Source: an uncultured delta proteobacterium (lineage in GTDB: Bacteria; Desulfobacterota; Binatia; UBA9968). From it: a DNA stretch of 64,000 nt. The notes under the pieces are model-generated. The model worked only from the letters and a program-made list of their open reading frames with translations, was not told the origin of the DNA and searched no databases. The stretch covers positions 96,001-160,000 of the forward strand of contig CAWDPO010000002.1 of NCBI GenBank assembly GCA_963804165.1, given 5' to 3'. The position numbers and the translations under genes were made by a program. Of the stretch, positions 10,879-64,000 are shown piece after piece (within the stretch, counting starts at the first letter, position 1; each line of letters opens with the position of its first letter).

Positions 10879-10942
10879 CGATCGCCCGCTTTCTCAGCGG
10901 CAAAATTGTGATGATTCATACTTGTCTTGAGCCGTTTAACAG

Positions 10943-10970
10943 AGTATACGAGCCGCAGAAATTAAGGCAA
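10943..10970 (-). promoter_or_regulatory. Putative sigma70 promoter for the epimerase/LPS core genes
   Basis: Minus strand TTGCCT-16 bp-TATACT about 65 bp upstream of the epimerase start. Confidence 0.4.
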
Positions 10971-11033
10971 ATATAAATCGCTCCCCTTGATCATGATCGG
11001 ACACCGCTAACAGCTCGAATGTGCAGTTCATGT

Positions 11034-12128: not shown

Positions 12129-12173
12129 TTAATGCATGGCGAGTGCTCTTTGATCCGTTCCCTGGTCAGCCCG

Positions 12174-15219: not shown

Positions 15220-15229
15220 CGATTCACTC

Positions 15230-16386: not shown

Positions 16387-16419
16387 GATGGGGAGAATCA
16401 CGGCGAGAGCTCAAAGCTG

Positions 16420-17342
16420 TTAACTGATCAATCGAGGCGATCTCCAGCGCGCGCAACGCTTCGGCGCCGCCGACCAACGGCAGCGTCCGAGCCGCCACGC
16501 AATCGAGAAAGGAATCGATCTCATCGGCCAAAGCATCACCGTCCTTGATTTCGATATTCTCGGCGCGAATGTCGAGCCATCCGGCGCCGGGCGCCGGTTT
16601 GTGATAAATCTGTGCCCGGCGTTGGTCGTAGTCGATCGAAATATAAGCATCGGATTGAAAAAATCGCATCTTGCGCTCCCGCTTGAGCGAAACCCGACTT
16701 GAGGTCACGTTGGCGATGCAGCCATTGGCAAAGTTGATACGCGCGTTGGCAATATCCGGCTTGTCGGTAAGCACCGGCACACCGACGGCTTCGACGCGCA
16801 CTACCGGCGAGCGTACCAAACTCGCAATCACGTCGATATCATGAATCATCAGATCAAGACCACGTCGACATCGGTGCCACGCTCGATAAACGGCGCCAAG
16901 CGATGGCACTCAACGAACTTTGGACTTTTGATGACTCCTTCGAGGCGGCGGATCGCCGGGTTGAAGCGTTCAAGATGACCGACTTGCAGAAGCACGTTTT
17001 TCTGCTGCGCCGCTCGCGACCAATTCGCGCGCCTCGTCAATGTCCGCGGTCAAGCGGTTTTTCCACCAAAACATCGATGCCGGCGTCGATGAAGTCGCGC
17101 GCCACCTGATAATGAAAGCGCGTTGGCACGGCGATGCTGACGCACTTTACCCGGCCAAACAACTCCCGATAATCGGTCAATGCCCCGACGCCAACCGCGG
17201 CGCCGATTTCTTTGGCGCGAGCTTCGTCAGTGTCGGCAACCGCGACCAGGTTTGCTTTTGCCGATGCGGCATATTTCTCGGCGTGGAACTTGCCGAGATA
17301 GCCGACGCCGACGACGCCGACGTTGATTTTATTGCCTGCCAC
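16420..17342 (-). CDS. Gfo/Idh/MocA oxidoreductase, GnnA-like (UDP-GlcNAc 3-dehydrogenase), frameshifted
   Basis: GVVGVGYLGKFHA, VLVEKP, QVGHLERFNPA and DLMIHDID; position between lpxI and lpxB. Confidence 0.75.
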
Positions 17343-17344
17343 GG

Positions 17345-18170
17345 TCAATGAGTTATGAATCTGCGCTGACGCCGACGACGCGATCCCATAAGCGTCGGCG
17401 TGGCCCAATAAGGCTTTCTTTCTCCAGCAAGATCGTCTTGCCGGCTTCCACGCCAAAACGTCGCCGCCGCACTGGTGCAGCAGAACGATGGTGTCGACCC
17501 CACGGCCGGCACGTCGAAGCGCAGATCCTGCTGCGGCTTACTTACTTTGACCACCACGCATCCCGATTTGGCCAGCGCTCCGCCGCGCTTGATCGCCGCA
17601 TCGGTTCCTTCCACCGCTTCGACCGCCACGACCACTTGATTCTTCACGACGACGGTTTGGCCGATACCCAGACGGCCGATTTCCTTTGCGATCCGAAAAC
17701 CCAGCTCGATATCGTCCCACTCCTCTGGCGCGGCTCGCGTTTGGTCAAGACCCTGCCCGCGCAAATGATTTGCGGACAAACAGAGCGTCGATTCCAAGAA
17801 TCCGAATGCCCTCTCAAGCTAGCTCATCGGCGATACCGCGTAACAGTGCGTCGTCCTCGCGGCTTTTCAGTTTGGCTAAAAAGCGCACGCCGCGGAGATC
17901 CGGCCGAAAATTGCCGAATAGTTTCACTTTGCGGATGCCGCCGGCCATCACCGCCTCGGTGACCGCCGCTGCGTTGAAACAGTGCGAATAATTTTACCGA
18001 GCTGGCCGACATAAATCCAAGTCGATTCGTCGGCGATGTCTATCAATCTCATTTTCCGTTTCGCCGTCGATGCGCCACCGCGATCACGCGAATAACCTTG
18101 CGCGTTTTGCCTCCTCGGCAAAAATGAGCGGAAACTTGCCATTGCCCGCGATTAACCCTAATTTCTTCAC
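17345..18170 (-). CDS. lpxI: UDP-2,3-diacylglucosamine pyrophosphatase, frameshifted
   Basis: KKLGLIAGNGKFP start, IGQTVVVK, AVEAVEGTD and KPQQDLRFDVPAVG motifs. Confidence 0.9.
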
Positions 18171-18225
18171 GGCGGTAAGCAGAATTGCTCGAGACCACCG
18201 GAGCATTGAGAAAATAGATTCAAAG

Positions 18226-19009
18226 CTAGCGGCAAACTCCCCGCTGCGACGTGCGCAATGAACGAAACGAATTCTTCGATTTCAGCAATGGCAGGCAATT
18301 CCTGGCGGATCCTATTCAACGCGTCCTCGGTTCTTGAGCTTGGATTGAAAGCGATCCGGTAGGCTTTGCGAATCGATGTCAATGACCGTTTTATCAAAGC
18401 CCCGCCGTTTGAGTCCCTCGATATTTAGGCCGTGCAGCTTGGCGCGGTCGCCGGTGGCATTGCAGTACGGTGGAACGTCTTTCGAGACCATCGAGCCGGC
18501 GCCCAAGATCGCGCCCGTGCCGATACGGACGAACTGATGAATGCCGACCAGACCGCCAACGATGACGAAGTCTTCAATCGATCACATGGCCGCCCAACGT
18601 CGCGCCGTTGGCGATGACGTTGCGGTTGCCGACGATGCAGTCGTGCGCGATGTGGCAATACATCATGAATAGATTTTGATCGCCCACGCGCGTCACCATG
18701 CCGCCGCCGCGTGGTTCCCGGATTGAGCGACACATATTCTCGAATGGTGTTGCGATTGCCAATGATCAGTTCGCTCGGCTCGCCTTTATACTTGAGATCC
18801 TGCGGCACGGAGCCTACGCTGGCGAATGGGAAAACTACATTGCCTCGCCCAAAGTCGTCCGCCCTTGAATGACGGCATGAGAATGAATCTTGCTGCCTTT
18901 GCCGATCTTTGACTCCCGCGCCGATGACACTGAATAGGGGCCGATTTCAACGTCGCTGTCCAAGTTCGGCGTGGGGATCGACGATCGCGGTAGGATGCAT
19001 GTGGCTCAT
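18226..19009 (-). CDS. lpxA: UDP-N-acetylglucosamine acyltransferase, frameshifted
   Basis: [28 protein letters not shown] and DVPPY...[12 protein letters not shown]. Confidence 0.9.
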
Positions 19010-19015
19010 GTCACG

Positions 19016-19470
19016 TCAAAGACTCCTTACGTCATCTCCACTTCCATGGCCGAGATTTCGGCCTGAGCTGACCACTTTACCATCGACTGAGGCGACTGCC
19101 CTGCATCTTCCAGAACGGAGCCGCGCCGTTTGATGCAGGTCAATTCCATGCGCAATTGATCGCCCGGGCTCCACCGGTCGTTTGAATTTGACTTTATCGA
19201 GTCCGGTCAGACACAAATACTTTGTTTTCCGCCATGCCGCCGCGCGCATTATGAGCGAAAATCGCGCCCACTTGGGCCATCGCTTCGCAGATCAGCACTC
19301 CTGGCATCACCGGCCGTTGGGGAAAATGGCCCTGAAAAAAATTGCTCATTGATCGAAACATTTTTGATGCCGACAATTTTTTCGTCGCCGTGGATTTCCA
19401 AGATTCGGTCGACCAGCAAGAACGGATAACGGTGCGGGATAAATTTGAAGATTTCCTTAACGTCCAGCAT
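19016..19470 (-). CDS. fabZ: 3-hydroxyacyl-ACP dehydratase, frameshifted
   Basis: [13 protein letters not shown] and [23 protein letters not shown]. Confidence 0.9.
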
Positions 19471-20549
19471 CGCGATCGAGTCTCCTTTTCCGCCTCTCTT
19501 AAGCAGCCGCGCCAGCTGTTTCTCCAAACTGCGCACGGTACTCCAAAGTTTCGGCAGCTGGGGCAGCAGCAGTCATCACCTTTAACCACTCATGATGCGG
19601 CGCAGCCGCGATGCCCCCAGATAAGAACGGCGCCTGCGGAGCAACAGATTGCGGAATTCCCGATTGCGGTCCAATCGATTGCGCCGTCGCCGATCTCAAT
19701 ATGATTGACGATGCCCACTTGTCCGGCCAGCGTAACGTTTCTTCCTAACCGCGTGCTGCCGGCGATCCCGCCTGAGCCGCGACCACCGAATACTCGCCGA
19801 CAACCACATTGTGGGCGATCTGCACCAGGTTATCGATCTTCGCGCCGCGAGCCGATCACGGTTCGCCCGAGCGTCGCGCGGTCGACCGTGGTGTTCGCGC
19901 CGATTTCGACATCGTCTTCGATCGACAACGATGCCCGACCTGGGGAATTTTGATACGATATTCGCCGGCACCCGCGTAACCGAAATCCATCGCTGCCGAT
20001 CACAACGCCCGCGTGCAGAATGACCCGTTCTCCCAACCGGCACCCGTCGCGCACGACGACGTTGGGATGAAGCGTACAATCAGCGCCGATCTGTGAATCC
20101 GCGCCAAGAAACACGCCGGGGAAAAGCACGGTCCCCTTGCCGATTCGCACGCGGGGTCCGACAAATACATTGGGAAAGACCGTCACGCCCGCCGATAACC
20201 GCGCTGCGATCGATATGAGCTTGGGACTCAAATCGCCGCTGAATTGCGGCGCGGGATGAAAAGGGTTGAAGAATTTTTGCGAAGGCGACGTACGGATCCG
20301 CGGTCTCGATAAATATTTAAGTCGCGGCGCTTTAGTCGCTTTCGCTCGACAACACCGGGGCCGACAATTACCGCGCTAGCGCGGCACTGGGGCAAGAAGC
20401 GTTGATAGCGCGGGTTGGTAAGAAAAGTGATTTCGCCCGGGACCGGCCCGTCGATCGGCGCGACTCTTATGAATGATGACACTTCCGTCTCCGATAACTT
20501 TGCCTCCGACATGAGTGGGCGAGATCGCTGAGCGTTTGCGAATCGTCAC
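19470..20549 (-). CDS. lpxD: UDP-3-O-acylglucosamine N-acyltransferase, frameshifted (ends approximate)
   Basis: ITFLTNPRY, hexapeptide repeats, VIGSDGF and [19 protein letters not shown]. Confidence 0.9.
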
Positions 20550-21061
20550 TTATTTTTTGGCCCGGCTATTATAGGATTCGATCACCTTGCTGGTGATATC
20601 CGATGCCTTGGTCGCTAAAAAGAATTTGCGATTTTTCGAAGATGAGCGTGAACTTTTCAGCTTTGCCGACTTCGTTAACGATCTGTTCGAGTTCCTTAAG
20701 AATATCGCCCATCATCTCGTTGTTCTTTTGCTGCAGGTCGTCTGATAATCGCCCATGGTGCGTTGCAAGGTGACTGAACGTTTTTGTAGATCCGCCTCAA
20801 GATTGCGCCGCTCTTCGTCTTTCAACAGCGGGCCCTTTTTTTCGATATCGCTCTTTATGCGATCGAGATCTTGCCGTTCTTTTTGGATATCCGCTTCGGC
20901 CTTTTTTATCTGCGCCTGGAATCTTTCTTTAGCCCGTTTCCGGCCTGCGAATCGGCAATGACCCGCTGGATATCGACAAATCCAATCTTTATGCGTTCCT
21001 GAGCAGACGCGACCGAACAAGAAAGTAACAGCGCCCCGATTGCAAGCAGCCAGTATTTCAC
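20550..21061 (-). CDS. skp: Periplasmic chaperone OmpH/Skp, frameshifted
   Basis: Signal peptide, KIGFVDIQRVI, coiled coil, DITSKVI C-terminus; between bamA and lpxD. Confidence 0.85.
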
Positions 21062-21107
21062 TAAGACCTCCGGAACTGGTTGATGAATTGATGAGAATGA
21101 AGTGCCT

Positions 21108-23550
21108 TTACGGTTGAGTGCCGATCGAGAAGCCGAGCACCGACGTATCGTCGCCGGATTTTTTACTGATCGGAAACCCGAGTTCGACGCGTAGCGGGCC
21201 AAACGGCGACATCCACCGTACGCCGGCGCCGACCGAGCGGCTGCAGATCACTGAAAAGTTAAACTTGTTCTCGAAGGAATTGCCCGTGTCGAAAAATGCC
21301 ACGCCGCGCAGTCCATACTGTTCCATAGATAGGAAACAACAACTCGGTATTGAACACTATCGCCTTATCCCCACCGACGACTTCGGTCGACGAGCACACG
21401 ACGTTCCGGTGGCGACCCGGATCAATCCGATGGGCTCCCGCGGTCCGATGGTACGATCTGCGAAACCGCGAATGGAGTTAATACCGCCAAGAAAATAGCG
21501 CTCGAAAAGAGGCAGATCTTTCTTGCCGTTGTTGCGTTCAGCTAAGCCCACTCCATAACCTACGGAACCTCCCAACGACAACACGTAGGCGCCGCCCCAG
21601 TTAGGATCCTTGAGCAATGGATAATACCAACGCCCGCTGACGTCGGACTTGATAAACCGCTACGTCACCGCCCAATCCTGCCATCTTAAAGGATAACCCG
21701 GACTTGAAGCCCTCGGTCGGGCTTAAAGAAATGATCGCGGCTATCGTAGCTGAGCCGCGGCGTCACGCTGCTCGTCAACGATTTACCTTTTTCCGCTATT
21801 GATCGACTCCGGCGCATTAGCTGATACATTTTTGATATTTTCATTTGTCAGATCGTAGGACAAACCGCCGCGCATATAATCCCAAATCGTCGGTCTGATC
21901 GTTGCTCGCCAGTAAAGTCCGAGCCTCGCTCTGCCTCCGGTTTACTCCCGTCCGAAGAACGGCATGCGAAAATCTTTCAAGCGGGTAGCTGCGAATTAAT
22001 CCCGAAACCGATCTTATCCTCATCGAAATCGAGTAAATTCCCGTTTCGTGTTAAACACATCCAAGCCCAGCGAAGACTTTGAATCGATAAAATAAGGATC
22101 GGTGACACTCAAGATATAGTCTTGGCGGCTCGTGCCGATGCTGAAATTGCCGCTCACGCCCTGTCCCCGGCCCGAAAAGTTTTTCTCCGAAACATTGGCA
22201 GTGAAGACAAAACCATCACCGCTGCTGTAACCGCCGCCAACTTGAAATGTTCCGGTCGGTCCCTCTTTTACGTCAACCAGCACATCGAGAGCGTCGGCTT
22301 GATCGGTTTTCTTTGTGGTGATCTGGACATCCTCGAAATAACCGGTTCGTTGCAGCGGCATTGTTACTCTGGGTGATTTTGTCACCCGAAAAAAGCTCTT
22401 GTTCGTTCGCGATCAATTCACGACGCACGACTTTGTCGCGGGTTTTGGTATTGCCGGTGACCAGCACTCGATTGAAATAAACCGGCGGGCCCTTGGTTGA
22501 TCACCAGCGCCACGTCGACATTTTTGTCGCCGGGATTGATCTTGGTCATCGGGTCGACTTGAACGAAAGCAAAGCCCTTGTTCGAATACATGTCGGACAG
22601 CGAGGTGACGTCTTCGCGCAAGCGGCTGCCGCGAAAAATTTGCCCGGTGGTGAGCTTGACTCGATTTCAACATCTTTTCCCGTCGTCGATCAATTCGCCG
22701 CCGATCTCGACTTTGCCGACCCGATACTGCGGCCCTTCTTTAATGCGAAAGATAACTTCCAGACCCGTCACGTGCCCGCAAAATCAGCCGGGATCATCGA
22801 TCTTGTGTTCGACGTAGCCATGATCATTGTAGTGATTGGAGAAGATCGCGACATCGTTCGTCAGCATGTCGCGATCGAGCACGCCACGATTCGTTATGAA
22901 TGAAAAAATCCACTCCTCTTTGGTGCCAATCAAGCCTTTGAGCTCACCCTGACGAAAAGGCCTTGATTCCCATCAAAGACACCTTCTTGATCAAAAGCCG
23001 ATTGCCTTCGATGATATCAAGAGTGACAACCGCTTGATTGTTAGCTTCGACTGAAACCGGATAATCGACCACCGCGTTCACATAACCTTGTTCACTGATA
23101 TAACTTTCGTACCTTTTCGACGCCTTCGGCGACTTTCGTCCGGTCCAAGATTGTGCGTGGGCCCACACCTAAAGCGGTTTCGATCTTTTCTTTCCGACAC
23201 TTGCGACGCGCCTTGAATCCTGACTTCGCGAATATACGGCTTTTCTTTGACCGCATAGGTCAGAACACCGTCCGGTGAGAGCTCGGCATGGACGTCGTCG
23301 AAAAAACCCATGCGAAAAATCGCTTTTACATCTTGATCAACGACCGCAGGATCGAAGCTTTCTCCCGCCCGGCTTTTCAGGTGCAGACGAATGCCGTCGT
23401 CTTCAACTCGACGTTGCCGCTAATGCGGATATCCTTCAGCGTGACTTTTTGTCGGTTTGGATCTTCAGCGGAAAACGTGCCGACGGCGAAAAACGACAAG
23501 AACAGGAAGCAAACAATCGCGGCATTTCGTGCGGTTTTGAAAAATTCCAT
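21108..23550 (-). CDS. bamA: Outer membrane protein assembly factor, frameshifted
   Basis: POTRA motifs (GNTKTRDKVVRRE, GYFEDV, VKEGPTG), YFLGGINSIRGF, WMSPFGPLR. Confidence 0.9.
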
Positions 23551-23637
23551 CAAGGCGTGCAAAACAGGTACCTTAAAATGCCAAAAGATTTCTAAATGTT
23601 TAGCAAAAACCGATACTTTTGTAAAGCCAAAATTGCA

Positions 23638-24317
23638 TTACTGGATCGCGGTCAGGTGGCCATCCTTCAGTTCCGCTTGCCGGCCGATCCTGTCGGCGAA
23701 TTGACGGTTGTGGGTGGCAACGATCAAGCCGATCCCTTGCTCTTCGTTCAGCCGGAACAGCAAACTCTGGACCTCCTCACCGATGCGCAAATCCAACGAT
23801 CCCGTGGGCTCGTCCGCCAAGACCAATTTCGGTTTGAGAATCACCGCTCGCGCCACAGCCACACGCTGCTGTTCGCCCCCGATAGCTTTCCCGGGCGATG
23901 GCTCATACGGGCCTTTAGCCCGACCAGTGCCAATAATTCGGTCGCATCGATTTTGGCTTGACTGGGATCGACCCCCCGTATGAGCGCCGGAAACATTACG
24001 TTCTCTAAAGCCGAGAAATCGGGCAATAGGTAATGAAACTGAAAAACAAAGCCGATTTGCTGATTGCGAAACTCACATAACGCAGTCTCGTCCGCGAGTG
24101 GCAATTCCTTGCCGCCAAATAGAATTTTGCCGCCGGTCGGCCGGTCCAGAGTGCCGAGAATATGCAGTAATGTGCTCTTTCCAACCCCCGACTCACCGAC
24201 GATCGCTAGACGCTCACCTTGGGCAATATCGAGATTCACCCCGCGCAATACATGAATCTCGTTGCCACCCTCGGTAAAGGATTTGCGTAAGTCTCGGACG
24301 GCGAGGAGATTACTCAT
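23638..24317 (-). CDS. lolD: Lipoprotein-releasing ABC ATPase, one frameshift near 23878
   Basis: [31 protein letters not shown] and LADEPTG. Confidence 0.9.
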
Positions 24318-25557
24318 AGCGGATGATTTCCACGGGGTCGAGCTTCGCAGCTTGACGCGCAGGGTAGATACTTGCGACCAAGCACACCGCAAACGACGTC
24401 AAAGCGACCAAGACGAAGTTGCTCAAGTAAATTCGCACCGGCACCGTGGAGATGAGAAACACGCCGTCCGGCAGTTGGAACCCATACTCGGAGATCAGAC
24501 CGCAGACCAGCAGTCCCAAGATCACGCCCATCGTCGTTCCGACCACGCCGATAATGCATCCTTTGAGCAAAAAGATTTTTCGGATGCTCTTTTGCGTAGC
24601 GCCCATCGAGCGTAATATCGCGATATCCTTTTTCTTTTCCATCACGACCATAACCAAGGTGGATACGATATTGAACGCGCCGATCAAAACCATCAACAGC
24701 AGCACCAAAAAATAGACTGTCTTTTCGAGTTTGAGCGCGGAAAAAAGGTTCGGCCAAAGCCGCGTCCAATCCTCAGCAAAGTAAGGAAAGCCTAAACGCC
24801 TTTGAATCTGGTCGGCGATCTGGCGCGATTGATTGACGTCGCGGATTCTAATCTCAATGTTTGTGACGGCGTTGCCAAGCTCGAAAAACTTTTGCGCGTC
24901 GGTAAGCGACATGATCACCAAAGTAGAATCGATCTCGCTCATGCCGGTTTTGAGGATGCCCGTTATGACGAATCGCCGTACTTTCGGAATTACACCGATC
25001 GCCGTCGGGCTCCCCAAAGGCGATACGACTTGCACCGGACTGCCAAGAAAAACGCCCAACTGGTTGGCCAATCGCTCGCCGAGGATAATTCCCGGAAGCA
25101 AAACGGTGCGCTCCTCGACTCGGATGGGCCGCGGCGTTTTGAACCCGTCGAGGCTTCCTTCTTTGATGTAGCTTTGTAAGTTGACGACGCTGTTGACTCG
25201 GTCCGGATCGACGCCGCGCACCACGACACCGGAGACCCTCGAGCCCGCGGTCAGCATGACCTGGCCATAGATCGTCGGTGTGGCCGCAACGACGCCATTT
25301 TCTTTGACCACTTGCTGCATCAATCGCTCGTAGTCTTGCAGCTGGTCCCCCGACTTGACCAGCGCGATATGCGCGTTGATCCCGAGCAGACGATCGCGCA
25401 GGGTTTCCTCGAAACCGGTCATCACGGCCATCACGACGTTGAGAGTCATCACGCCGATCATGACGCCGAGCACCGAGATCAGCGTGATGAGCGAAATGAA
25501 AGTTTCTTGCCGACGCGCCTGCAGATAGCGCAGGCCGATGAACAATTCGTATTTCAT
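24310..25557 (-). CDS. lolE: Lipoprotein-releasing ABC permease, LolC/E family
   Basis: FIGLRYL...FISLITLIS, FNIVSTLVMVVMEKKKDIAILRSMGA and YPARQAA. Confidence 0.9.
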   Translation of the reverse strand: MKYELFIGLRYLQARRQETFISLITLISVLGVMIGVMTLNVVMAVMTGFEETLRDRLLGINAHIALVKSGDQLQDYERLMQQVVKENGVVAATPTIYGQVMLTAGSRVSGVVVRGVDPDRVNSVVNLQSYIKEGSLDGFKTPRPIRVEERTVLLPGIILGERLANQLGVFLGSPVQVVSPLGSPTAIGVIPKVRRFVITGILKTGMSEIDSTLVIMSLTDAQKFFELGNAVTNIEIRIRDVNQSRQIADQIQRRLGFPYFAEDWTRLWPNLFSALKLEKTVYFLVLLLMVLIGAFNIVSTLVMVVMEKKKDIAILRSMGATQKSIRKIFLLKGCIIGVVGTTMGVILGLLVCGLISEYGFQLPDGVFLISTVPVRIYLSNFVLVALTSFAVCLVASIYPARQAAKLDPVEIIRYE

Positions 25558-41230: not shown

Positions 41231-43038
41231 CTATTTCTCCGCACCGCTTACCCGAATACCGAGTTCCCGAAGCTGGCGCGTCTCTACGCTCGACGGCGCG
41301 TCGGTGAGCATGCACACCGCGCGCTGGCTCTTGGGGAACGCGATCACGTCGCGCAGCGACTTGGCGCCGCTCAAGAGCATCGCCAGCCGATCGATACCGA
41401 AGGCAATGCCGCCGTGGGGCGGCGCCCCGAAACTCAAAGCCTCCAGAAAAAACCCAAACTTCGCTTCCGCTTCTTCGGCGCCGATGCCCATGAGGCCGAG
41501 AATTTTTTTCTGCAACTCCACTTGATGGATACGAATGCTGCCACCGCCGATCTCGATGCCGTTGAGCGCCAAATCGTACGCCTTGGATCGGCTCTTCGCG
41601 GGCTCGCTGTCGAGCAAAGGCAAATCCTCATCCAACGGCGACGTGAACGGATGATGCAGGGCAACGTAACGCTTTTCTTGAGGATCGAATTCCATCAGCG
41701 GAAAATCCACCACCCATACGAGCGCGTAATCTTTTTCCGGGATCAAACCGAGCTTTTCGCCCAAGTGCAGGCGCAGATTGCCGAGCGCATCGTGCACCAC
41801 CTTGGCGCGGTCGGCGGAGAATAGCACCACGTCGCCGACCTGTGCCTCCGCGATTTCTTCGATCGCCTTCTGTTCGGCCTCCGAAAGAAACTTCGCGATC
41901 GGCGATTGCCAACCTTCGGCGGTGATCTTGGTCCAGGCGATTCCTTTGGCGCCGAACGTCGCCACGAACGGGGTCATATCGTCCAAGTCTTTGCGCGACA
42001 GCGCCGCGCCGTTGGGAATGCGGATGCCTTTCACCACACCGCCGTTCTGAATCGCGCGCGGCAAACACCCGCGCCTGGCAATTGCGCAGAGCGTCGGTGA
42101 AATCCTTGATTTCCAAACCGAAGCGCAGTATCCGGCTTATCCGAGCCGAAGCGATTCATCGCCTGTTCGTAAGTCAAGCGCGCAAACGGACGCTTGAGCT
42201 CGATGCCTTTCAGCTCTTTGAATAAGAGCGAGATCATGCCCTCGACAACCTGCATCACGTCTTCGGGTTGGACGAACGACATTTCCATGTCGAGCTGGGT
42301 GAATTCCGGCTGGCGGTCGGCACGCAGGTCTTCATCGCGAAAACATTTGACGATCTGAAAGTAGCGGTCGAGTCCGCCGACCATGAGAATCTGCTTGAAT
42401 AATTGCGGCGACTGCGGCAGCGCATAAAACTTGCCGGGATAGATGCGGCTCGGAACCAAGTAATCGCGCGCGCCCTCCGGCGTGCTTTTGGTCAAAACCG
42501 GTGTTTCCACGTCGATAAATCCCAGGCCGTCGAGATAGTCGCGGATCGACTTCGTCATCCGATAGCGCAGCAGCAAATGACTCAAGCTCTGCGGCCGGCG
42601 CAGATCGAGATATCGGTATTTGAGCCGGGTGTTCTCGTTGGCGTCGGTTTCGTCTTCGATGACGAACGGCGGTACAGCCGACGCATTAAGCAAGCGCAGC
42701 TCGTTGCAAACCAGTTCCACTTCACCGGTAGCGTGATCGGGATTGATCGTCTCCGGCGATCTTTTGGACAGGGTCCCGCGTGCCGCGATGACGTCCTCGG
42801 AACGAATCTGTTTTGCTTTCTCGTGTGACGCGGCATCGACCTCCGGGCGAAATACCACCTGGCAAATACCGCTGCGGTCGCGCAGATCGACAAAAATAAC
42901 GCCGCCGTGGTCGCGGCGGCTATGAACCCAACCTACCAAGATCAGGTCACTGCCGACCGCAGCGGCGCGCGGTTCGCCGCAATAGCAGCTGCGTTTCCAG
43001 TCGCCCCACTGATCGCTAAACACTCTGTCCGTCGCCAT
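41231..43038 (-). CDS. aspS: Aspartate--tRNA ligase, frameshifts near 42060-42130
   Basis: [41 protein letters not shown] and [14 protein letters not shown]; the His in RRDHGG is typical of non-discriminating enzymes. Confidence 0.95.
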
Positions 43039-44324
43039 CAGCCCATCTTCCTGGCCAGCAACTCCGCCTCGATTCTGTCCAAACCGATTTCCTCCTGCCG
43101 TTTGCTGGCCATGTCGCGCAGCACCGCTTTGCCTTTGGCCAGCTCATCATCGCCGAGGATCAATACCGACGCTGCTTTGAATTTGTCGGCGCGGCGCATT
43201 TGACTCTTCAAGCTGCGCGCTTCGCCTTCCATCTCCACGTTCAGATTATTTTTGCGCAAGCGATGAACCAACGGAAAAGCCCAATCGCGCGCCTCCTCAC
43301 CGACCCAAACGACATAGAGGTTCGGGCCAGCGTTCGCCACGCTCTCTTGCATCTTGAGCAACATCGTCAGCCGCTCTATGCCCATGGCAAAGCCGACACC
43401 GGGAATCGCCGGCCCTCCGAGTTGCTCAACCAAACCGTCATAACGCCCGCCCGCGGCGATCGCGCTTTGGGAGCCCAGTTGCGCGGTGGTCCATTCGAAC
43501 GTCGTGCGGCAGTAGTAATCGAGGCCGCGCACCATGCGCGGATTGAGCGTGTATTTCACGCCTGTGCTGCGCAACGGCCGCTGCACGGAGTCAAAATGCT
43601 CGCGGCACGCGGCGCAGAGCGATTCGAGAATCGACGGCGCGTCTTTCGTTGCCTCGATGCAACCGGGCTCCTTGCAATCGAGTGCTCGCAGCGGATTGCG
43701 ATCAATGCGCCGCCGGCAATTGGCGCACAACGAATCCTCCCGCGCTTTTAAAAAGGCCAACAGCGTTTCGCGATACTGCGGCCGGCATGCCGCATCGCCG
43801 AGCGAATTGAGCTGCAGCGTTGGTTCGGTCAAACCGATGAAATCGAAAAAATCGTTGAGCAGGAGCAAGACTTCCGCGTCGATGAACGGATCGCCGCGCC
43901 CCAAAGCTTCAGCGCCGATTTGATGAAACTGGCGCATGCGGCCTTTCTGTGGCCGCTCGCGCCGAAACATCGGCCCCATGTAATAAAGTTTGCGCGCCGG
44001 TTCGACTTTATACATCTCAGCTTCCACGTAAGCGCGCACGACGCCAGCGGTGCCCTCCGGCCTCAGCGTGAGCTTGGTTCCTTCGGCATTGTTGTCAGTG
44101 CTCCGGCCGTCGCGATCTTCGAAAGTATACATCTCCTTTTCGACGATGTCCGTGGTTTCGCCGATGGACCGGCTGAACAGCTCGGTCTTTTCGACGATCG
44201 GAATGCGGATCTCGGCAAAGTTGTAGGCCGTAAAAACGCGGCGCGCCACCGCTTCCACCTGCTGCCAAGCGCCGACCTCTTCCGGCAGGATATCCGAGAA
44301 TCCCTTAATACTAGTGATCTTCAT
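43038..44324 (-). CDS. hisS: Histidine--tRNA ligase
   Basis: KEMY, LRPEGTA, FRRERPQKGR, VRGLDYY and GGRYD; ATG 44324. Confidence 0.95.
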   Translation of the reverse strand: MKITSIKGFSDILPEEVGAWQQVEAVARRVFTAYNFAEIRIPIVEKTELFSRSIGETTDIVEKEMYTFEDRDGRSTDNNAEGTKLTLRPEGTAGVVRAYVEAEMYKVEPARKLYYMGPMFRRERPQKGRMRQFHQIGAEALGRGDPFIDAEVLLLLNDFFDFIGLTEPTLQLNSLGDAACRPQYRETLLAFLKAREDSLCANCRRRIDRNPLRALDCKEPGCIEATKDAPSILESLCAACREHFDSVQRPLRSTGVKYTLNPRMVRGLDYYCRTTFEWTTAQLGSQSAIAAGGRYDGLVEQLGGPAIPGVGFAMGIERLTMLLKMQESVANAGPNLYVVWVGEEARDWAFPLVHRLRKNNLNVEMEGEARSLKSQMRRADKFKAASVLILGDDELAKGKAVLRDMASKRQEEIGLDRIEAELLARKMG

Positions 44325-47285: not shown

Positions 47286-47575
47286 CTGAAGTGAAACTAA
47301 AAGACCCCTACCTCAATCCAATCAAAGTAGGGGTCATCAATTCGCCGTTGCGAATGGTTTACTGGCGAACCCCATCGCCTCAAATCTATCGCATTATTTG
47401 TTCAAAAACGCCGCCAAGTCAATTTAAAGGATGGACACATGAGAACGGCGTCGATCGCCCTCGCGCAAATTAGCTGGGGAAAAACAACTCTTGCCATGCG
47501 ACCGACGGCGCTGCTTTCGTTTACCCACAAAAAACGGTTACTCTCGTCCGATCACCGGATGATGAAAGGCGTACC

Positions 47576-48455
47576 ATGAAGATCAAATCGAAGGAGTTTC
47601 GCGTCGTTGAAGGCGATAAGGTTAACCTCAAAAAGTGGCCGACCAAGGTGAACCGTTATTACACATCAAAGAAACAACTAAGAAAAATGCTGCGCGCCCA
47701 CGTCAAAGAGATGAGCGAACTGCAAAATCTCCTCTACGCCTCCAACAGTTATGCCGTGCTGCTGATCTTCCAGGCGATGGATGCCGCCGGCAAGGATAGC
47801 GCGATCAAACATGTAATGTCCGGAGTCAATCCTCAAGGTTGCCAGGTGTTCAGTTTCAAGCATCCGAGCCTCGAAGAGTTGGACCATGATTTTTTGTGGC
47901 GCACCACGCGCGCACTGCCCGAACGTGGCCGAATCGGGATTTTCAACCGCTCTCACTACGAGGAAGTTCTTATCGTTCGAGTCCATCCCGAACTTCTGCG
48001 TGCCGAAGGTATTCCCGATGAAGCGCTCGACGACAAGACAATCTGGCGCGACCGATATCGATCGATCCGTCATTTCGAGGCCCATCTGCACCGCAACGGC
48101 ACGCGAATCGTCAAGTTTTTTCTCCATCTTTCCAAAGAGGAACAGCGCAAACGTTTTCTCGCCCGCATCGACGAGCCGGATAAGAACTGGAAATTTAGCA
48201 GGTCAGACGTCGAAGAAAGAAAATACTGGGACGACTATATGAATGCCTAATGAATGCCTATGAAGCCTGCCTGAACGCCACGAGTATGCGCCATTCACCC
48301 TGGTATATCGTCCCGGCCGATGACAAGGGAACGCGCGACTGATCATTTCACGAATCATTCTCGATACTCTTCGCGGATTGAAGATGAAGTACCCAACTAT
48401 TACTGAAAAACAGCGCAAAGAACTGCGCGCTCTGCGCCGGCTGCTGGCTAAATAA
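47576..48455 (+). CDS. ppk2: Polyphosphate kinase 2 family protein, interrupted by an 11-bp duplication at 48239-48260
   Basis: [27 protein letters not shown] and WKF..SD..ER; [11 protein letters not shown] continues after the stop. Confidence 0.9.
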
Positions 48456-56388: not shown

Positions 56389-56689
56389 TAATGGTAAATA
56401 AACAGTTGACATTTTTGTCATAATTGTGCACTTAATGCGTCCGATTATCAGCCGGTCCAAAGTTGAATTGCATTATCTCCAATGAACGTCTTCTTCGACG
56501 GCTTGCAGCCGAACGCCGGCAGCTTGATTGCACTGTCAAGAGCCAAAGATAAAAATTAACAAACCCGATAATGACCGCATGGTTGAGAAACCCGTGTAGA
56601 AAATAGTTGGCAAGATCAAACACAGTAGAGGGTGCAAGAGGAAATAGATGTAACGCCCTATATCCCAAGGCTCACCGGGGGAAGTGTGT

Positions 56690-58235
56690 ATGGCCACCAA
56701 AGCGTTGAACCTATCGAACATTCAAGGAAACATAATCGGGGGCTTCAACAAGGATTTTCAAGACTTTTTGTTTCTACAATTTGCAGGAGCCGGCCATGCG
56801 CGAGCTTGGATCCGTGAAATCTTGAATCCAAAGTTTTCTCCTGGGCTCGCAAACTCAACCAGTCGGAACGTCCTAAAATTCAACGCTCAGTTCAAGGCGC
56901 TACGTGCCGAGGGTATCGAACCGGAAACGGTGATCACCTCTGAATGGACACACCTCGCAATTTCCTTTCTTGGCTTCAAGGCGCTGGGAATCTCCGCTAG
57001 ATCGCTGGCTCGTTTTCCGCGAGCCTTTCGCGCCGGCATGGCCGACCGGAAAAAGATCCTGGGGGACTTGGGTGCAAACGATCCAAAAAATTGGCTGCCG
57101 GCGTTCCAAGCGGGCAATATCCATGCCCTCTTAATCGTGGCCGCCGATAGCGAGGCGCAACTCAACCTCCGAGTTGATGCCTTGCAGAACTCTAGAATTT
57201 TCAAGAACGGAGTCAGAGTGCTCTATCAGGAACATGGCAGAACTCGCGAAGACGAACGCGGGCATGAGCACTTTGGGTTCAAGGACGGTGTATCCCAACC
57301 GGGAATTCGTGGGGTCACGCAGCCAACAGATCCTCTTGGCAATCCCCATTGCGGCCAACCGGGTCAGTCTTTGGTGTGGCCAGGAGAGTTCGTCCTCGGC
57401 TATCCGACGCAGAAACCCAAGCACAAGCCTGGAGTTGATGGCCCCAATCCAGATCCCGGGCCGCTCAGCAGATCGGGCCCCTCCCGGTGGACTACAGACG
57501 GTTCGTATCTGGTATTGCGCCGTTTGCGCAAGATGTGCTCGGATTTCGCAAACAACTAAATGACCTTGCGGAGCCAATGGTCTCACCGAAGATCTGATGG
57601 GCGCAAAACTTATGGGACGCTATAAAAGCGGCTACCCATTGATGCAGCGGGAATTTCATCGTCAATCAGCCATTCCGCCGGGCGCCGATCCAGGGAAGGT
57701 TCTTCCCGCGCTCAACAAGAGTGAAACGCTGAATAACAACTTTAGATTTGCCAATGATCCAAGCGGAGATGTGTGTCCCTTCGCGGCTCATATTCGGAAG
57801 GCGAATCCCCGTGATGAAATTATTTCAGACAATCCAGCGGACAGTGAAAGCCAGGTGCAAACCCACCGGATTTTGAGGCGCGGTATCCCCTTTGGCGCAT
57901 CTCTAGGCGCGCTGCGCGGCGGAGATGCTAATGATCAGCGAGGCCTCCTCTTCGTGTGTTTTCAGAAAGACATACAAAGGCAATACGAGTACGTGCAAAC
58001 CCAATGGATCAATAACATCAACTTTCCTCCGTCTGCTGCTGATGTAACGCCTGGTCCGGACCCAATTGTCGCGATGACTCATGGTGGACGATTTCATCTG
58101 GAGTCAAACAAATCGGCCGTTCACATTCAAAATTATGTCAAAATGACCGGCGGGGAGTATTTTTTTTCTCCGTCGTTGAAGACACTAAAAAAATCGGTCA
58201 ACATAAGATTTAAGGCGCGTCGGAACATCGCATAG
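56690..58235 (+). CDS. DyP-type (dye-decolourising) peroxidase, frameshifts near 57530-57590
   Basis: NIQGNI, EHFGFKDGVSQP (GXXDG), PGEFVLGY, DGSYLVLRRL, AHIRKANPR, RILRRGIPFG and GGEYFFSPS. Confidence 0.9.
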
Positions 58236-58709: not shown

Positions 58710-61700
58710 TCACGGTAGAGCCAAGCTGATGCGGCCGAAAATTGTCCTGGTTGGCTGAATCCGCGGGTTTTTGAAATCCAAGTCGAAATAGTTGAACTTT
58801 TTGTCCAACAAATTAGTTGCACCAATGGTGACAAATCCATAGCGCATCGGCAAGCGCCAATTCAGGGCAAGGTCCAGTGTCCAAAAATCATCGCTGCCGT
58901 TGCGCGAGACTCCGGCTACTTTGAGATTGAATTTTCCGTTTTGATGATAGTAGGTAGGCTGCAAGACAGCGCTCAGGCCTGAAGAGTGAAAAAAGTTCAA
59001 TCCCAGTGGCACTCGATGGGTATTTAGGCGAGCCGGAAAACTAGTCGTGCCTTCTCTGGTGAAATGTTCAAACTGATATTCGGTGCGTAGCGCAAACCAG
59101 GGATGTGGCGTCCAAAAGAAATAGACCCGACTCTGTTGTTCCTCTGCGTCCTGCATTTCCTCCACGAGCTGGCCGTTGTTGTTCAATCTCGTCAACGGCA
59201 CCTTTAGGTTTCTTCCTGAATATTCGATCCCGCCAAAGACTTCCTTGGTAAACTTTTGATCCACAGCGACTCCATAGCGCCACGCCTCGGTTCCATTGAT
59301 ATCATCGAAGAATTGATTGAACCCGGCGACTTGGGTGGGCTCAAGGGTTTGATCGGTTATCAATGTTCGCTTTAGCACGCGAAATGCCGCACCGCGAACA
59401 GTGGTATCGACCCATGGGTTCCAGACAATGCCGAACTTCGGATTGAATTGATCCTTGGATTCGAAATTGCCACCCCTCGTATCGACAAAATCGCCACTGG
59501 CGCCCAGCGTTACAGTCAATGCCTTTGTCGGACTCCAATGGAGATAGTTGTACAAGTTTACATGTTTTTGATCGTCGCTCTCGCCGGGAAAGGCAAGGAT
59601 GTCATCGGGCGGCGGGAGCGGTAACCCGATTGTCGTGAAAAACCGGCCGTTGATCTTCGCATAGCCAAAACCCGAGACGACGTTAAAGTATGTTGAGCGA
59701 TATAGATGCTGAGCTTCCCCCTGAAATAAGTCTTGCGGGTTCTTGAAATCTTGAAAGGTAAACAACGGTAGTAACTGATCGTCTTTCTGAGTAAATCTTG
59801 AGTGTTGAAAAATGAACGAGCCGAGCAATGTCGAATTCGATGTCAACGCGTGCCGGATCCCGAAGCGGGCCGTTTGGCGTTCTTCCCGATTGACTTCCCC
59901 AGGAAAAAAATCGTCGGGAAAAAATCGCAGTCTATTGTCGCCATATACCAGGCTTCGGTAACGATACTCCCCTTGAATGCTTGTGCTAGACGATAGTTCC
60001 GCTTGCACGAATGCATTGCCGATTGAATCTCGCTGGCCGATATTTTTGCGAAAACCATCAGTCTGAAAATGAAACCCCCCTAGGCTAAAGGAGGTCTTCT
60101 TATAAATTCCCGATAAGACTCCTTCCCCCGCGTAAGTGTTATTTTCGCCGGCCAGGCCGGTCGTCTGGAAATTAATCCCATTCCGATTAAACAGCGGATT
60201 AAACTCATTGAACGAGAAAACCGCCGGACCGGCGCTTCAATCAAGAGCAGATCGCTCTCAGCCAACCGCGGCTGAATCGGCGTCATGTTCAATGGCTGGA
60301 GCAATTGCGACTGCAATAGTTCGCTCACCCGGGCGATCTCGTGGCGTGGCAAAACCGAATAAGAGTCCGCAAGAAATCTGTGGGCGGAAAAATTCGTTGG
60401 ATCGGTATTGACCGACTTCCATCCTTCGACCAGCGCAAGCTGCTGAAACCCAAGATCGCTGTAGATTCGACCCAGGCTGGCGCTTCGTGCCGCGAGATCG
60501 GAATCGAGTTGAAGACTTGAGCGGTAGACTGCCCGATTGTCGTTTAACTCGATTGCTTTTTGTATGTCATGCAAAGCCTCGACCGGGCGGTTGGTGGTTT
60601 GCTTCGCAATAGCATCGTAGAACCAGGGTGTGGGATCCTTCGGGTCCAGTTCCTTGGCAATGGCATACTCGCGCTCGTCCCTTGGGCCGCGCTTCTCTTC
60701 AAAATAGGCTTTGCCCAAATAACTTCGGACGATCGAGTTGTTCGGGTCCAGGCTGGCAGCAATTTCAATCTCCCGTCTACCCTCCTGCAAATCACCCTCT
60801 CGGATCTTTGCTAGTCCCAGACCCAGCCTCGGGAGGTAATCGGCTTGGTCAAACTCAATCGCTTTTTCGAAGGCAGCCTTGGCCTCCGTGGTGTTGACCT
60901 GTGTCAGATAAGCGAATCCGAGGACCGTCCGCGTTCTCGACAGGTTTGGATCCAGAGCGACCGCCTTTTTGGCCGCTTCAAGGGCTTCGTCCAGATCGGC
61001 GAATGACATGTGGAGCTCCGCTAACCGCGCCCAAGCCAGGGTGTTTTCCGGGTTTGCTTGTACCGCCTGTTGCAAGCTGGTCCGCGCGCCTTCGAGATCG
61101 AAATTCGCCTGCTGACCGTAGGATAAAGCGATCAGCGCTGACGCGGATTTTGGGTCGCCTTAACGGCCTTCTGCGCGAGTGCAAGCGCTTTTTCCTTGTC
61201 GTTTTGGACAACGGCAATTATCGATTGGAGTGCGATGGCATCGCTGTATTTTGGATCTAAACTCAGTGCCCGCTCAAGATCCGGACCTGCTTCATCGACG
61301 CGCCCTACGGCAAGCAGCAAAGAGGCGCGGTAGGCAAAAAACCGTGGTTCCCGGAGATCGTTAGGCACACCTTTGATGGCCTCAAAGGCCCCCTGAAAAT
61401 CACCCTTCATGTAAGACTCAAGAGAGTTTCGCACCATCCCCTGCCAACCGGGCCCGGCTGGAAATTCCTCCGGGCGTAAATAGAGGGCGGGCGGATAGTA
61501 TAAGGCCCATTGAACTGCATCCCGGGGACGCACAACGGTGCGCAATACGGGAGCTTGTCCTCTTTCGGCTACAGCCGACTGACCATCGGTCAGCGTCACG
61601 CTCCCAGCTTGGTTCGAAGCCAACACCATACCCTCAAAAATCGTTATCAAGGCTCTGTCGGCCTCGACCTGAACCAAGCCCTCGGTTCCCTCCACACCAG

Positions 61701-62094
61701 CGTTGACGAACGCGGTGATGATCTCCAAATTGCGCGGCAGGCGGCTGAAAAAGTAGAGAGCGCCGCGGACCAGCTCGATGAGGGAGGTTCTCTCTTCTCT
61801 CACTCCTCCGAGAGTGATCGTGGTGTCTTGGTTCAGGCGGAGAACGGGTTGATTGACCAACGCAACATCAGCCCGGCTTCTCTCGCCAACCTGAATCCTA
61901 TCTCCTGGGCAATAGCCGTCGTTTAGTCGGGCCGGCTGCCATTGGGTCTGGCCCGCCCGACGAACTTCGACGCTCCCTTGAACAGAGACTAACTTGGCTA
62001 CAGGGGGATCGCAGGTCGTCGCCGCGAAGGACGGAATCGATGACAATAAACTAAGACTCGCGCAGAGCACCGCAATCCGTCGTATTCTGTTCAT
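58710..62094 (-). CDS. Outer-membrane FecR-domain + TPR + TonB-receptor-like beta-barrel protein (NsrA-like), about 1130 aa, frameshifted
   Basis: Signal peptide; FecR-like AKLVSVQG.VEV...GDRI...NAGVEGTE; multiple TPRs; amphipathic barrel strands (QFNPKFGIVW, DLALNWRLP, GATNLLDK). Confidence 0.85.
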
Positions 62095-62408
62095 ACTATC
62101 AACTCCCGTTCTCCCTAGTCCTCTACAGGGAGCGTGTCGGAAATCGCCGTGGCCCTTCGACAGCGTCGAGGCAAACGACTAACCTGTTGAATCTCGATCT
62201 TGTGGCGTCTTTTCGTCGGCAGCTTGTCGAACAATGAATAGACTTTTGACATAGTCTGAGGAGAGAGTGCGAATGCGTTCGGGACGCATCGTTCGGGAGG
62301 AAGGTTTCCTTCGATAATTGATTATTGAAGAATCGGCTTTATGCGTGATTTATCTCCGCCCGTCATCAATCATCGACGTATATATCACAGGAATAGTCAG
62401 AATGGTTA

Positions 62409-64000
62409 TTATTTTTCGTCTATGGGGATCACGCCCGTCCAAGACCCATCAGGTGGATGCATCCGGTACTCCTTACAAAGTTTAAGGTAGAACAGTGACA
62501 GGCTATCTGCGCCGAGAATATCGATGCATTCATGAAATTTCTTTTCGGCATCGTCCCAAGCGCGCCGTCGGAATGCGCCTAGGGCGTCGGAAAAGATAGC
62601 GCAAGCCTGCTTCTGATTTTCATTGGCATCTTCCGCCCGATCTAGCAATTCGTAAACTACGACCGGCTGTGTCTTACCTCTCAGCAAGAAGCTCCCCGCG
62701 TTTCTCGTCATAAAATCATTTAAATCGTGGACGACCTCTTGAGAAACCAATATCTGAGTCCCTAGATATTTATTTAGACCGTCCAGCCGAGCCACTGTGT
62801 TGACCGTATCCCCCGTAACGCCATACTCATAATGATCCCCGGCGCCCATGTTGCCGAGGTATATTTCGCCGGCGTGGACCGCAATGCGGGTCGGAAGACT
62901 GACGCTCGCAAAGGCCTGATTGAATCGAACGACGGCTTTGGCAAGCCCCAAAGCTGCCGCACAAGCTTTTTTCCCGAGCGTCACGTCCGGACCTTGCGCC
63001 TGCCAGATAGCCAAAATCGAATCTCCCTTGAGCTCAACCACAAGACCGCCGTGTTGCTTGATCGGCTCAAAGGTGGTCTCGAAATACTCGTGCATGAGGT
63101 CGCTTAACTCCCGCGGACCCATCTTTTCCGACAGGTTCGTATAACCCGCAGCATCGGCGAACAAACAAGCACCGTAGACGGTTTGCCCGCCGCGTCTGAT
63201 ATCGACGATGTTTCGCGCCATCTGATTGACCACATCGTTCGGAACATAGTAACCCAACGCATTCCGAATATTCTGCCGTTCTTTGTTGGTTTCGAAATAA
63301 TTTAATAACATGGAGCCGACGATGCCGAGAGGCGTTTGCACAAGGAGCGGAATGACAATCGGATACCAGGTGGCTTCGGCTTTGAACTGATACTCGGCAG
63401 CCGCCAGATAGAGAAGGCTCAAAATCACAACTGCGACCGCAGCCGGTATGGTTCCGGTCGCGCGGCAGATCGTACCGATGACCATACCCCAGACGAGAAT
63501 AATGAAAATGTAGGAATATGAACTGATCGTTTTTACCGGTGAATCTTCGAGAAGATTCGCAAACGCCGTCGCGGCAATTTCCACGCCGCTGATAAATACG
63601 CCGTTGGCTTGTGAATAAACCGTATGGAAGCTGTCCTGTCGTTCCGCGAGCAAGATTTCCGAATATCCGACAAAAACAGCTTTCCCCTTGAGCTCCACCG
63701 GTTTTTTGTCGCCGGAAATTCCACCGGGGCGCAAGGCGTGATTATAGGGGACGGTCGTTAGCGTCCGGGGCGGACCGTAATAATTGAGATAGCGGCGATT
63801 TTCGCCGCCGTACATTCTTACAAGAGACTTGAGCAATCTGTACTTTTCGCCGTGGCTTGCCGCGAGATTCGAGCGCTCCAACTGCGCGATCATTTTCTCT
63901 GAAAGGGTTGGGTCGCTTTCAAAAATTTCCCTTATATCTCTCATGAATTTCGCGACGCCTCGGGCTTGTAGCCCAGTACCGACAGTCCACGGCAGCCTTC
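62409..64000 (-). CDS. CHASE2-domain membrane class III nucleotide cyclase, 5' end outside the window
   Basis: CHASE2 tail (LNYYGP, LKGKAVFVG, SGVEIAATAFANLL), three TMs, catalytic FADAAGYT, ELKGD and GDTVNTVARL; frame stays open to 64000. Confidence 0.9.
   Translation of the reverse strand, partial: RLPWTVGTGLQARGVAKFMRDIREIFESDPTLSEKMIAQLERSNLAASHGEKYRLLKSLVRMYGGENRRYLNYYGPPRTLTTVPYNHALRPGGISGDKKPVELKGKAVFVGYSEILLAERQDSFHTVYSQANGVFISGVEIAATAFANLLEDSPVKTISSYSYIFIILVWGMVIGTICRATGTIPAAVAVVILSLLYLAAAEYQFKAEATWYPIVIPLLVQTPLGIVGSMLLNYFETNKERQNIRNALGYYVPNDVVNQMARNIVDIRRGGQTVYGACLFADAAGYTNLSEKMGPRELSDLMHEYFETTFEPIKQHGGLVVELKGDSILAIWQAQGPDVTLGKKACAAALGLAKAVVRFNQAFASVSLPTRIAVHAGEIYLGNMGAGDHYEYGVTGDTVNTVARLDGLNKYLGTQILVSQEVVHDLNDFMTRNAGSFLLRGKTQPVVVYELLDRAEDANENQKQACAIFSDALGAFRRRAWDDAEKKFHECIDILGADSLSLFYLKLCKEYRMHPPDGSWTGVIPIDEK

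Follow-up and report, generated by a model that had tools for sequence, protein, structure and literature searches.

A FecR-TPR-barrel receptor gene paired with a CHASE2 nucleotide cyclase gene in an uncultured Binatia bacterium, a probable NsrA/CyaK-type sensor with cyclic GMP as its most likely product

We analyzed a 64,000-nucleotide stretch of the genome of an uncultured delta proteobacterium (Desulfobacterota; Binatia; UBA9968), positions 96,001 to 160,000 of contig CAWDPO010000002.1 in assembly GCA_963804165.1, referred to here as the window. At its distal end, a gene for a class III nucleotide cyclase with a CHASE2 domain is followed on the same strand by the gene of an exported protein, which we call the receptor, composed of a FecR-like domain, an array of tetratricopeptide repeats (TPRs) and a C-terminal beta-barrel. 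The receptor and a CHASE2 transducer form a conserved module, and the locus is a module of the NsrA/CyaK type rather than a new kind of system. With fair confidence, we interpret it as an envelope-spanning sensor of that kind, the product of which is most likely cyclic GMP (cGMP), and we take the two frame breaks that interrupt the receptor gene to be, most likely, assembly errors.

The original prediction for this stretch had described the receptor as a protein of roughly 1130 residues encoded in an interrupted frame, and this architecture was borne out. Downstream of the cyclase gene, three open reading frames (ORFs) lie on the minus strand in three different frames (61132..62094, 320 aa; 60080..61075, 331 aa; 58710..60008, 432 aa), in which Pfam detected FecR and TPR, then TPR, then no family. 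The intact 1135-aa homologue of G015, one of the same-genus genomes used for comparison (G003, G004, G006, G015, and G019), aligned across the three successive frames in a tblastn search, with identities of 87% for residues 6-320, 90% for residues 321-628 and 58% for residues 628-1135. This indicated that the three ORFs are parts of a single gene, about 1127 codons long, from which one base is missing at each of two sites. Its product begins with a signal peptide, recognized by eye, that is immediately followed by the FecR-like domain (E 1.1e-11, 45.5 bits for a cut-off of 24) and about 11 TPRs.

Modeling of the C-terminal 508 residues with 31 relatives in the input yielded a 22-strand barrel (pLDDT 88.1, pTM 0.83; strands assigned by DSSP). 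The best solved matches of this barrel in Foldseek were the TonB-dependent transporters FhuE, PqqU, FpvA, FoxA, and FecA (E 3e-18 to 1e-15, TMq about 0.7). Pfam detected a Plug family neither in the window ORFs nor in the intact orthologues, and no search was made for a TonB box. The full-length G015 model (pLDDT 81.3, pTM 0.77) comprises a beta-rich domain (residues 40-192), about 24 helices (224-605), a short linker of low confidence joining the TPR array to the barrel, and 22 strands (647-1134). Conservation along the receptor gene is mosaic when window positions 58713-62094 are compared with the G015 orthologue (L015:6203-9610), the FecR/TPR part standing at 87-90% and the barrel at 58%, and the barrel is about equally distant (52-58%) from all closer relatives. 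This pattern points to fast divergence, or to exchange, of what is predicted to be the surface part.

The cyclase gene runs past the end of the window, where its ORF (62409..63998, minus strand) is open. Reading on along the same contig placed its start at window-equivalent position 64658, so that the first 220 of 749 codons lie beyond the window. The protein matched the Pfam families CHASE2 (1.8e-29) and Guanylate_cyc (1.4e-13), and its hydropathy profile predicts a first transmembrane helix at about residues 5-27, a periplasmic region at residues 28-376, three further transmembrane helices (Table 1), and then the cytoplasmic cyclase domain. Alignment with hmmalign showed that the catalytic residues D, D, N, and R are present in the window cyclase and in 40 of 42 relatives encoded, like it, upstream of a receptor gene on the same strand. 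Among proteins of solved structure, the best match to the catalytic domain is Cya2 of Synechocystis PCC 6803 (2w01; E 3.6e-17), a CHASE2-regulated cyclase that makes cGMP and is turned into an adenylate cyclase by the substitution E488K (PMC5995499). In phmmer alignments, Glu542 of the window cyclase is aligned with the corresponding Glu of Cya2, a position occupied by Lys in the E488K variant (6fht) and in the adenylate cyclase CyaB (3r5g), and Gly613 is aligned with a Gly of Cya2 where CyaB has Thr. The presence of every catalytic residue together with the Glu/Gly pair of Cya2 instead of Lys argues that the product is most likely cGMP. Judged from these residues, we place cGMP just on the probable side.

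Co-occurrence of the two genes, on which the original prediction had staked its proposal, is conserved. In a search with the barrel as query, matches came from 5 of the genus's 24 other species; 16 genomes from two other families of the order gave none. A CHASE2 cyclase gene lies directly upstream of the receptor gene in all five same-genus loci (whole in G015, G003, G004, and G006, split in G019), and the flanking genes differ among them, with for example TctA at one locus and UbiD at another. Scanning one genome per species, we obtained at least 602 pattern matches, at least 534 of which were confirmed as relatives. The neighborhoods of the best 80 of these 534 or more relatives, which come from many phyla and include three with DNA identical to same-genus loci, were searched for partners using a hidden Markov model built from six CHASE2 cyclases and, for chosen neighbors, Pfam. 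Forty-five loci were well flanked, i.e., had at least 2.5 kb of sequence upstream and at least 4 kb downstream. A CHASE2 transducer adjoins the receptor in 41 of them: a CHASE2 cyclase in 35 (immediately upstream in the same orientation in 29, with the gene split in one case; upstream and divergent in 1; downstream in 5) and a CHASE2 protein with a non-cyclase output in 6. In the remaining four, a HAMP-PAS-GGDEF-EAL protein is encoded downstream of the receptor. No well-flanked locus contains a partnerless receptor, and all 17 partnerless loci among the 80 lack sufficient flank on at least one side. According to Pfam, the other outputs are a PP2C phosphatase (L031 and L032), a Ser/Thr kinase (L078 and L079), or CHASE2 alone (L036); L039 and L089 were classed by likeness, and L031 lies outside the 45 well-flanked loci. 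With 41 of 45 loci paired, the absence of conserved co-occurrence is clearly contradicted. Among 151 genomes of the phylum searched from the CHASE2 side, 91 contained the domain. In L036, an IS200-like transposase gene (positions 11254-12414) separates the receptor gene from the CHASE2 gene downstream of it.

The original prediction also held that the periplasmic FecR/TPR part relays the signal to CHASE2. We compared domain-wise pairwise identities in 31 receptor-cyclase pairs. FecR identities correlated more closely with those of CHASE2 (Spearman coefficient 0.81) than with those of the TPR array (0.66) or the barrel (0.49) of the same protein. When the cyclase domain and the TPR array were regressed out, the partial Mantel value for FecR and CHASE2 was 0.61, which was reached by none of 2000 label permutations, and the partial values vanished for TPR and CHASE2 (0.02), barrel and CHASE2 (0.04), and FecR and the cyclase domain (-0.14). 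In addition, the genome has three CHASE2 and three FecR-domain genes, and for two of the CHASE2 genes a FecR-domain gene is the neighbor. The LysM-FecR protein encoded beside a CHASE2 histidine kinase in Burkholderia (PMC5192318) is a further hint of such a partnership. The divergence test and the second FecR/CHASE2 pair support a relay that would run from FecR to CHASE2.

The second pair is found at positions 4297-7595 of locus L101 (G000:C6:64001-76000), where a 151-aa FecR ORF and a 191-aa OmpA-family ORF face a 531-aa CHASE2 ORF. The latter overlaps a SpoIIE/PP2C ORF of 274 aa in a different frame, and the two are probably one gene split by a frameshift. The third CHASE2 gene, at positions 2838-13160 of locus L102 (G000:C37:102001-121000), codes for a 536-aa protein with a truncated cyclase match and has no FecR-domain neighbor. 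It lies behind the gene of a TPR-CHAT protein, and genes for a DUF928 protein, an ShlB-type transporter and a 1060-aa family-less protein come after it.

We propose that the receptor sits in the outer membrane by means of its plug-less 22-strand barrel, with the TPR solenoid and the FecR-like domain hanging into the periplasm. The cyclase would reside in the inner membrane, exposing CHASE2 to the periplasm and, beyond the three further helices, its class III cyclase domain to the cytoplasm. A change in the receptor may be brought about by some event in the outer membrane or at the cell surface; its FecR-like domain would then contact CHASE2 and thereby switch the cyclase dimer on or off. The cGMP produced could then be read by one of the 13 cyclic nucleotide-binding proteins predicted from matches elsewhere in the genome, the nearest of which is encoded on the same contig at a distance of about 109 kb. 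Of this scheme, the analysis itself shows the domain architecture, fold, conserved pairing, and residue pattern; the FecR-CHASE2 contact, the direction in which the signal travels, its nature, and the nucleotide made are inferred.

Several observations weigh against this reading. The original prediction had suggested looking beyond position 64000 for a Crp/Fnr effector or a phosphodiesterase; none was found over about 10 kb on the upstream side of the cyclase gene or about 14 kb on the downstream side of the receptor gene, and four same-genus loci that we scanned contained no Crp regulator or phosphodiesterase either. Five Cys-rich proteins encoded behind related receptor genes, described below, matched nothing in this genome (81% complete) when used as tblastn queries. 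A Mantel-type test on related sequences overstates significance, and block-wise recombination, with the cyclase and FecR forming one block and the TPR array and barrel another, could generate the FecR-CHASE2 pattern. For these reasons, we count the coupling as support and not as proof.

The pair of specificity residues drifts within the genus, being Glu/Gly in G015, Glu/Ala in G004, Asn/Gly in G003, and Asp/Gly in G006. Among the 42 upstream same-strand cyclases, 12 have Asp/Arg, 8 Asn/Arg, and 4 Gly/Thr, the rest falling into smaller classes. The rhizobial-type cyclase encoded beside an NsrA-like gene in Ensifer has Lys/Ser. As the pair varies in both genus and clade, Glu is not a family trait, and the product of the clade cannot be read from Cya2 alone. 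We know of no characterized counterpart of the Asp/Arg and Asn/Arg pairs. It is thus quite possible, though not the option we favor, that the module works as described with a product other than cGMP, be it cAMP, both purine nucleotides, or another cyclic nucleotide. Against this, the pair in the window is exactly that of Cya2, a proven CHASE2 guanylate cyclase and the best solved relative, and the Lys of adenylate cyclases occurs in none of the 42 upstream-type cyclases. The cGMP output put forward by the original prediction therefore remains plausible and no more than that. The scoring of Lys versus Glu that it had suggested gave Glu in the window and no Lys in the upstream-type cyclases; across the clade, the specificity positions range over Asp, Asn, Glu, and Gly.

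It appears unlikely, although conceivable, that the barrel is not a receptor for an external macromolecule, as had been predicted, and that it reports an envelope state such as outer-membrane or periplasmic stress, or provides a secreted partner with a channel or an anchor, and that this state is what CHASE2 senses. In many relatives, including G003 and G019, a gene for a secreted Cys-rich protein (215-300 aa, 9-19 Cys) lies directly behind the receptor gene, followed in G003 and G019 by a SurA_N/DsbA-like gene. These Cys-rich proteins form a loose, fast-evolving family and are present whatever the transducer type; some loci have instead a 71-aa protein with a Cys/Trp-rich tail at its end. These alternatives would also be in keeping with the transporter type of the barrel and with the cell-wall ties of other CHASE2-FecR partners, namely, the OmpA-family neighbor in the second pair of this genome and LysM in Burkholderia (PMC5192318). 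However, no Cys-rich gene is present in the window, in G015, or in G004. In NsrA, the one studied case and the source from which the proposed sensing of an external macromolecule is borrowed, cells depend on the protein to respond when uL2 is added as a signal (PMC7529298). Finally, the barrel is the fastest-diverging part of the receptor (58% versus 87-90%), as expected of a surface-exposed part that binds a ligand.

The frame breaks raise the question of whether the receptor gene is functional. We placed them at about 61156 and 60237/60238. The interval of 60080-60250 given by the original prediction contains the second break, whereas its position of about 61135 for the first corresponds to the stop codon in frame 1. 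A real and very recent pseudogene in this strain, leaving the cyclase alone or inactive, would account for two independent single-base deletions in 3.4 kb when rpoB and rpoC, 8 kb on another contig, have none. The integrity of these two genes indicates that the assembly is not error-ridden throughout. The patchy distribution of the module in the genus suggests that it is dispensable. No sequencing run of this strain was found against which to check the breaks (best share of sampled words, 0.19), and the frameshifts could thus be real.

Other observations argue for assembly errors. All three segments of the gene are free of stop codons, and the ratios of nonsynonymous to synonymous substitution relative to G015 are 0.06 for segment A and 0.04 for segment B, which lies behind the first break, the barrel being too diverged for such a measurement. 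The missing bases are present in related strains, represented by contigs of four sequencing runs (X1 to X4) from other samples: contigs of X2 and X3, 96-99% alike over the aligned pieces, have an extra base behind 60237, and those of X1 and X4 continue beyond 61156 with one additional base, then similar sequence. Moreover, other genes of the window are split, i.e., those for an ABC ATPase (13460-14262), aspartyl-tRNA synthetase (aspS, 41631-43143), and a DyP peroxidase (56684-58235), as is the second signaling gene, CHASE2-PP2C on contig C6, and bamA is fragmented, as detailed below. Taken together, the breaks are quite probably assembly errors and not marks of a dead gene, and we regard a pseudogene as improbable. 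Programmed frameshifting was considered and set aside, since a single frame spans the gene in the G015 and G003 orthologues and at 74 of the 80 loci surveyed. Last, that the two genes are mere neighbors with no joint function, a notion favored by the 314-nt spacer between them, is highly improbable: across many phyla, 41 of the 45 well-flanked loci keep the pairing, with flanking genes and even output domains that vary, and FecR and CHASE2 divergence is specifically coupled.

The likely sensor described here is best compared with NsrA of Sinorhizobium meliloti, an outer-membrane barrel protein of about 1200 aa required for the activation of the CHASE2 cyclases CyaK and CyaD1/D2 (PMC13001267, PMC7529298), in which case the signal is the added ribosomal protein uL2 (PMC7529298). 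The analogy drawn by the original prediction gained support from a megaplasmid of Ensifer canadensis, on which the gene of a 1216-aa FecR and TPR protein with a C-terminal region is followed by that of a 682-aa CHASE2 cyclase. This protein shares 26% identity with the G015 receptor over 508 aa (E 8e-20), with a further weak match in the barrel. A search of plasmid-encoded proteins returned 11 records from Ensifer, Rhizobium, and Sinorhizobium that matched in the FecR part only; NsrA of S. meliloti was not among them. The window and the Ensifer counterpart have in common the architecture of the receptor and an adjoining CHASE2 cyclase. They differ in that homology, as measured against the E. 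canadensis protein, is distant only, the gene order is reversed, with the cyclase first in the window, and the specificity pair is Glu/Gly instead of Lys/Ser. Also unlike the NsrA/CyaK system, no Clr-type regulator was detected near the locus (about 10 kb upstream and 14 kb downstream). With Cya2, the cyclase shares the combination of CHASE2 and a class III cyclase domain and both specificity residues, but the literature consulted, with the gene neighborhood of Cya2 left aside, describes no outer-membrane partner for it.

Related arrangements involve other partners. As described in PMC9239204, a Campylobacterota cluster codes for a CHASE2 adenylate cyclase, an outer-membrane protein with a FecR domain, a TPR protein, and a phosphodiesterase. 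Compared by that description, it differs from the window in that the FecR/outer-membrane and TPR parts are separate proteins, a phosphodiesterase is included, and the cyclases are called adenylate cyclases. In the BiofilmReg operon of Burkholderia, a LysM-FecR protein is encoded beside a CHASE2 histidine kinase (PMC5192318). The juxtaposition of a periplasmic FecR-domain protein and a CHASE2 sensor is similar to that in the window, as it is to the second FecR/OmpA/CHASE2-PP2C pair of this genome, but in the account given there the anchor is a peptidoglycan-binding domain and not a barrel, and the output is a two-component kinase. As in FecA-FecR-FecI, a barrel of the TonB-dependent transporter type, with FecA among its Foldseek matches, is combined with a FecR-family periplasmic domain. 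Here, however, barrel and FecR are fused in one exported protein that would signal to a cyclase, and there is no plug, no extracytoplasmic function (ECF) sigma factor, and no anti-sigma part. With TonB-dependent transporters in general, the receptor shares the 22-strand barrel but not the Plug family. The novelty that the original prediction had attached to a non-rhizobial lineage found no support in this comparison, since the family is very widespread (at least 534 relatives) and a related cluster is in print for Campylobacterota, as far as PMC9239204 describes it. In our literature search, no paper connected a guanylate cyclase of the CHASE2 type with a partner in the outer membrane.

The features of the locus are listed in Table 1. 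The original prediction had noted the lack of ECF sigma, anti-sigma, or TonB genes nearby, and this is correct: no such families, nor ExbBD, were detected among 10 ORFs scanned upstream of the cyclase gene or among the scanned window ORFs of at least 70 aa below position 58600. The spacer between the two genes is partly alignable to that of G015, and those of G004 and G006 are much shorter. No Rfam match was obtained over the locus, spacer included (E up to 0.1). A scan for promoters and terminators gave 3 promoter-like sites for 4.7 expected and 20 terminator-like sites for 10.4 expected, none of which is informatively placed. Beyond the window end, 314 nt upstream of the cyclase gene, a gene codes for a 390-aa protein with no signal peptide (L002:6972-8144, minus strand). 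This protein matched no Pfam family, its best Atlas score of 0.75 was not usable, and its gene is not kept beside the pair in the same-genus loci.

TABLE 1 Positions of the features of the receptor-cyclase locus in the window, and of Cys-rich protein genes in related loci
Feature	Position	Strand	Basis and remarks
CHASE2/class III nucleotide cyclase gene	62409..64000, runs past window end	-	ORF; Pfam; 749 aa total
Three transmembrane helices between CHASE2 and cyclase domain	63303..63530	-	Residues 377-452; hydropathy, translation
Cyclase catalytic domain	62664..63167	-	Residues 498-665; Pfam, hmmalign; the two metal-binding Asp and the transition-state Asn and Arg
Glu542 codon GAG, purine-specifying position	63033..63035	-	phmmer alignment; Lys in adenylate cyclases
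Gly613 codon GGC, second specificity position	62820..62822	-	phmmer alignment; seven residues ahead of catalytic Asn
Cyclase-receptor spacer, 314 nt	62095..62408	-	ORF bounds
Receptor signal peptide, 25 aa, ending SFA|A	62020..62094	-	Translation, read by eye
FecR-like domain	61624..61902	-	Pfam match, receptor residues 65-157; whole beta-rich domain about 33-185
Receptor segment A, frame 1: signal peptide, FecR-like domain, first TPRs	61159..62094	-	tblastn
First frame break, one base fewer than in intact relatives	61155..61158	-	tblastn frame switch from query residue 320 to 321
Receptor segment B, frame 2: TPR array	60239..61156	-	Pfam TPR families, tblastn
Second frame break, one base missing	60236..60238	-	Frame change at query residue 628
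Receptor segment C, frame 3: short linker, plug-less 22-strand barrel, stop codon	58710..60236	-	Model, Foldseek
Cys-rich protein genes in related loci	L016 5346-6182; L018 5571-6305	-	Also in L034, L035, L037, L047, L054, L059, L094, and others

Elsewhere in the window, several genes are fragmented or incomplete. The DyP-type peroxidase is encoded as separate N-domain and C-domain ORFs. The aspS ORF ends at position 178 of 308 of its profile, and the next ORF lies in a different frame. PPK2 (47474-48247) stops short, at position 183 of 229. An envelope cluster at 13460-24400 is made up of many short ORFs, with the MsbA-like ABC ATPase followed by pieces of lpxA, fabZ, lpxD, ompH, and bamA. 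The bamA gene (about 21117-23413, minus strand) was matched in at least five pieces, with stop codons inside, and a second BamA-family gene is whole on contig C29. A tblastn search with the product of the latter gave two weak pieces in the broken bamA region and did not reveal the kind of breaks. The 13460-24400 region must be a stretch in which assembly errors are frequent or else a decaying copy.

To our knowledge, the ligands of CHASE2 domains are still unsettled, and there are few worked examples of bacterial cGMP signaling. Our survey goes beyond the known case in three respects. The barrel protein is almost always encoded beside a CHASE2 transducer, whatever the output domain; the FecR and CHASE2 parts diverge in step; and the common environmental form of the cyclase is devoid of the adenylate-cyclase Lys. 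The survey also yields a concrete pair of domains for binding tests and natural specificity variants for assay. As a tentative generalization, FecR-like domains might be general periplasmic partners of CHASE2, and the FecR-TPR-barrel protein a portable front end for cyclases, PP2C phosphatases, Ser/Thr kinases, and GGDEF-EAL proteins. The large environmental clade of this window, which has dispensed with the Lys, would then signal from the cell surface through cGMP or, in members with an Asp/Arg or Asn/Arg pair, a different cyclic nucleotide. If this is true, the orphan CHASE2 domain would gain its first general ligand, a protein partner, and bacterial cGMP signaling from the outer membrane would become testable.

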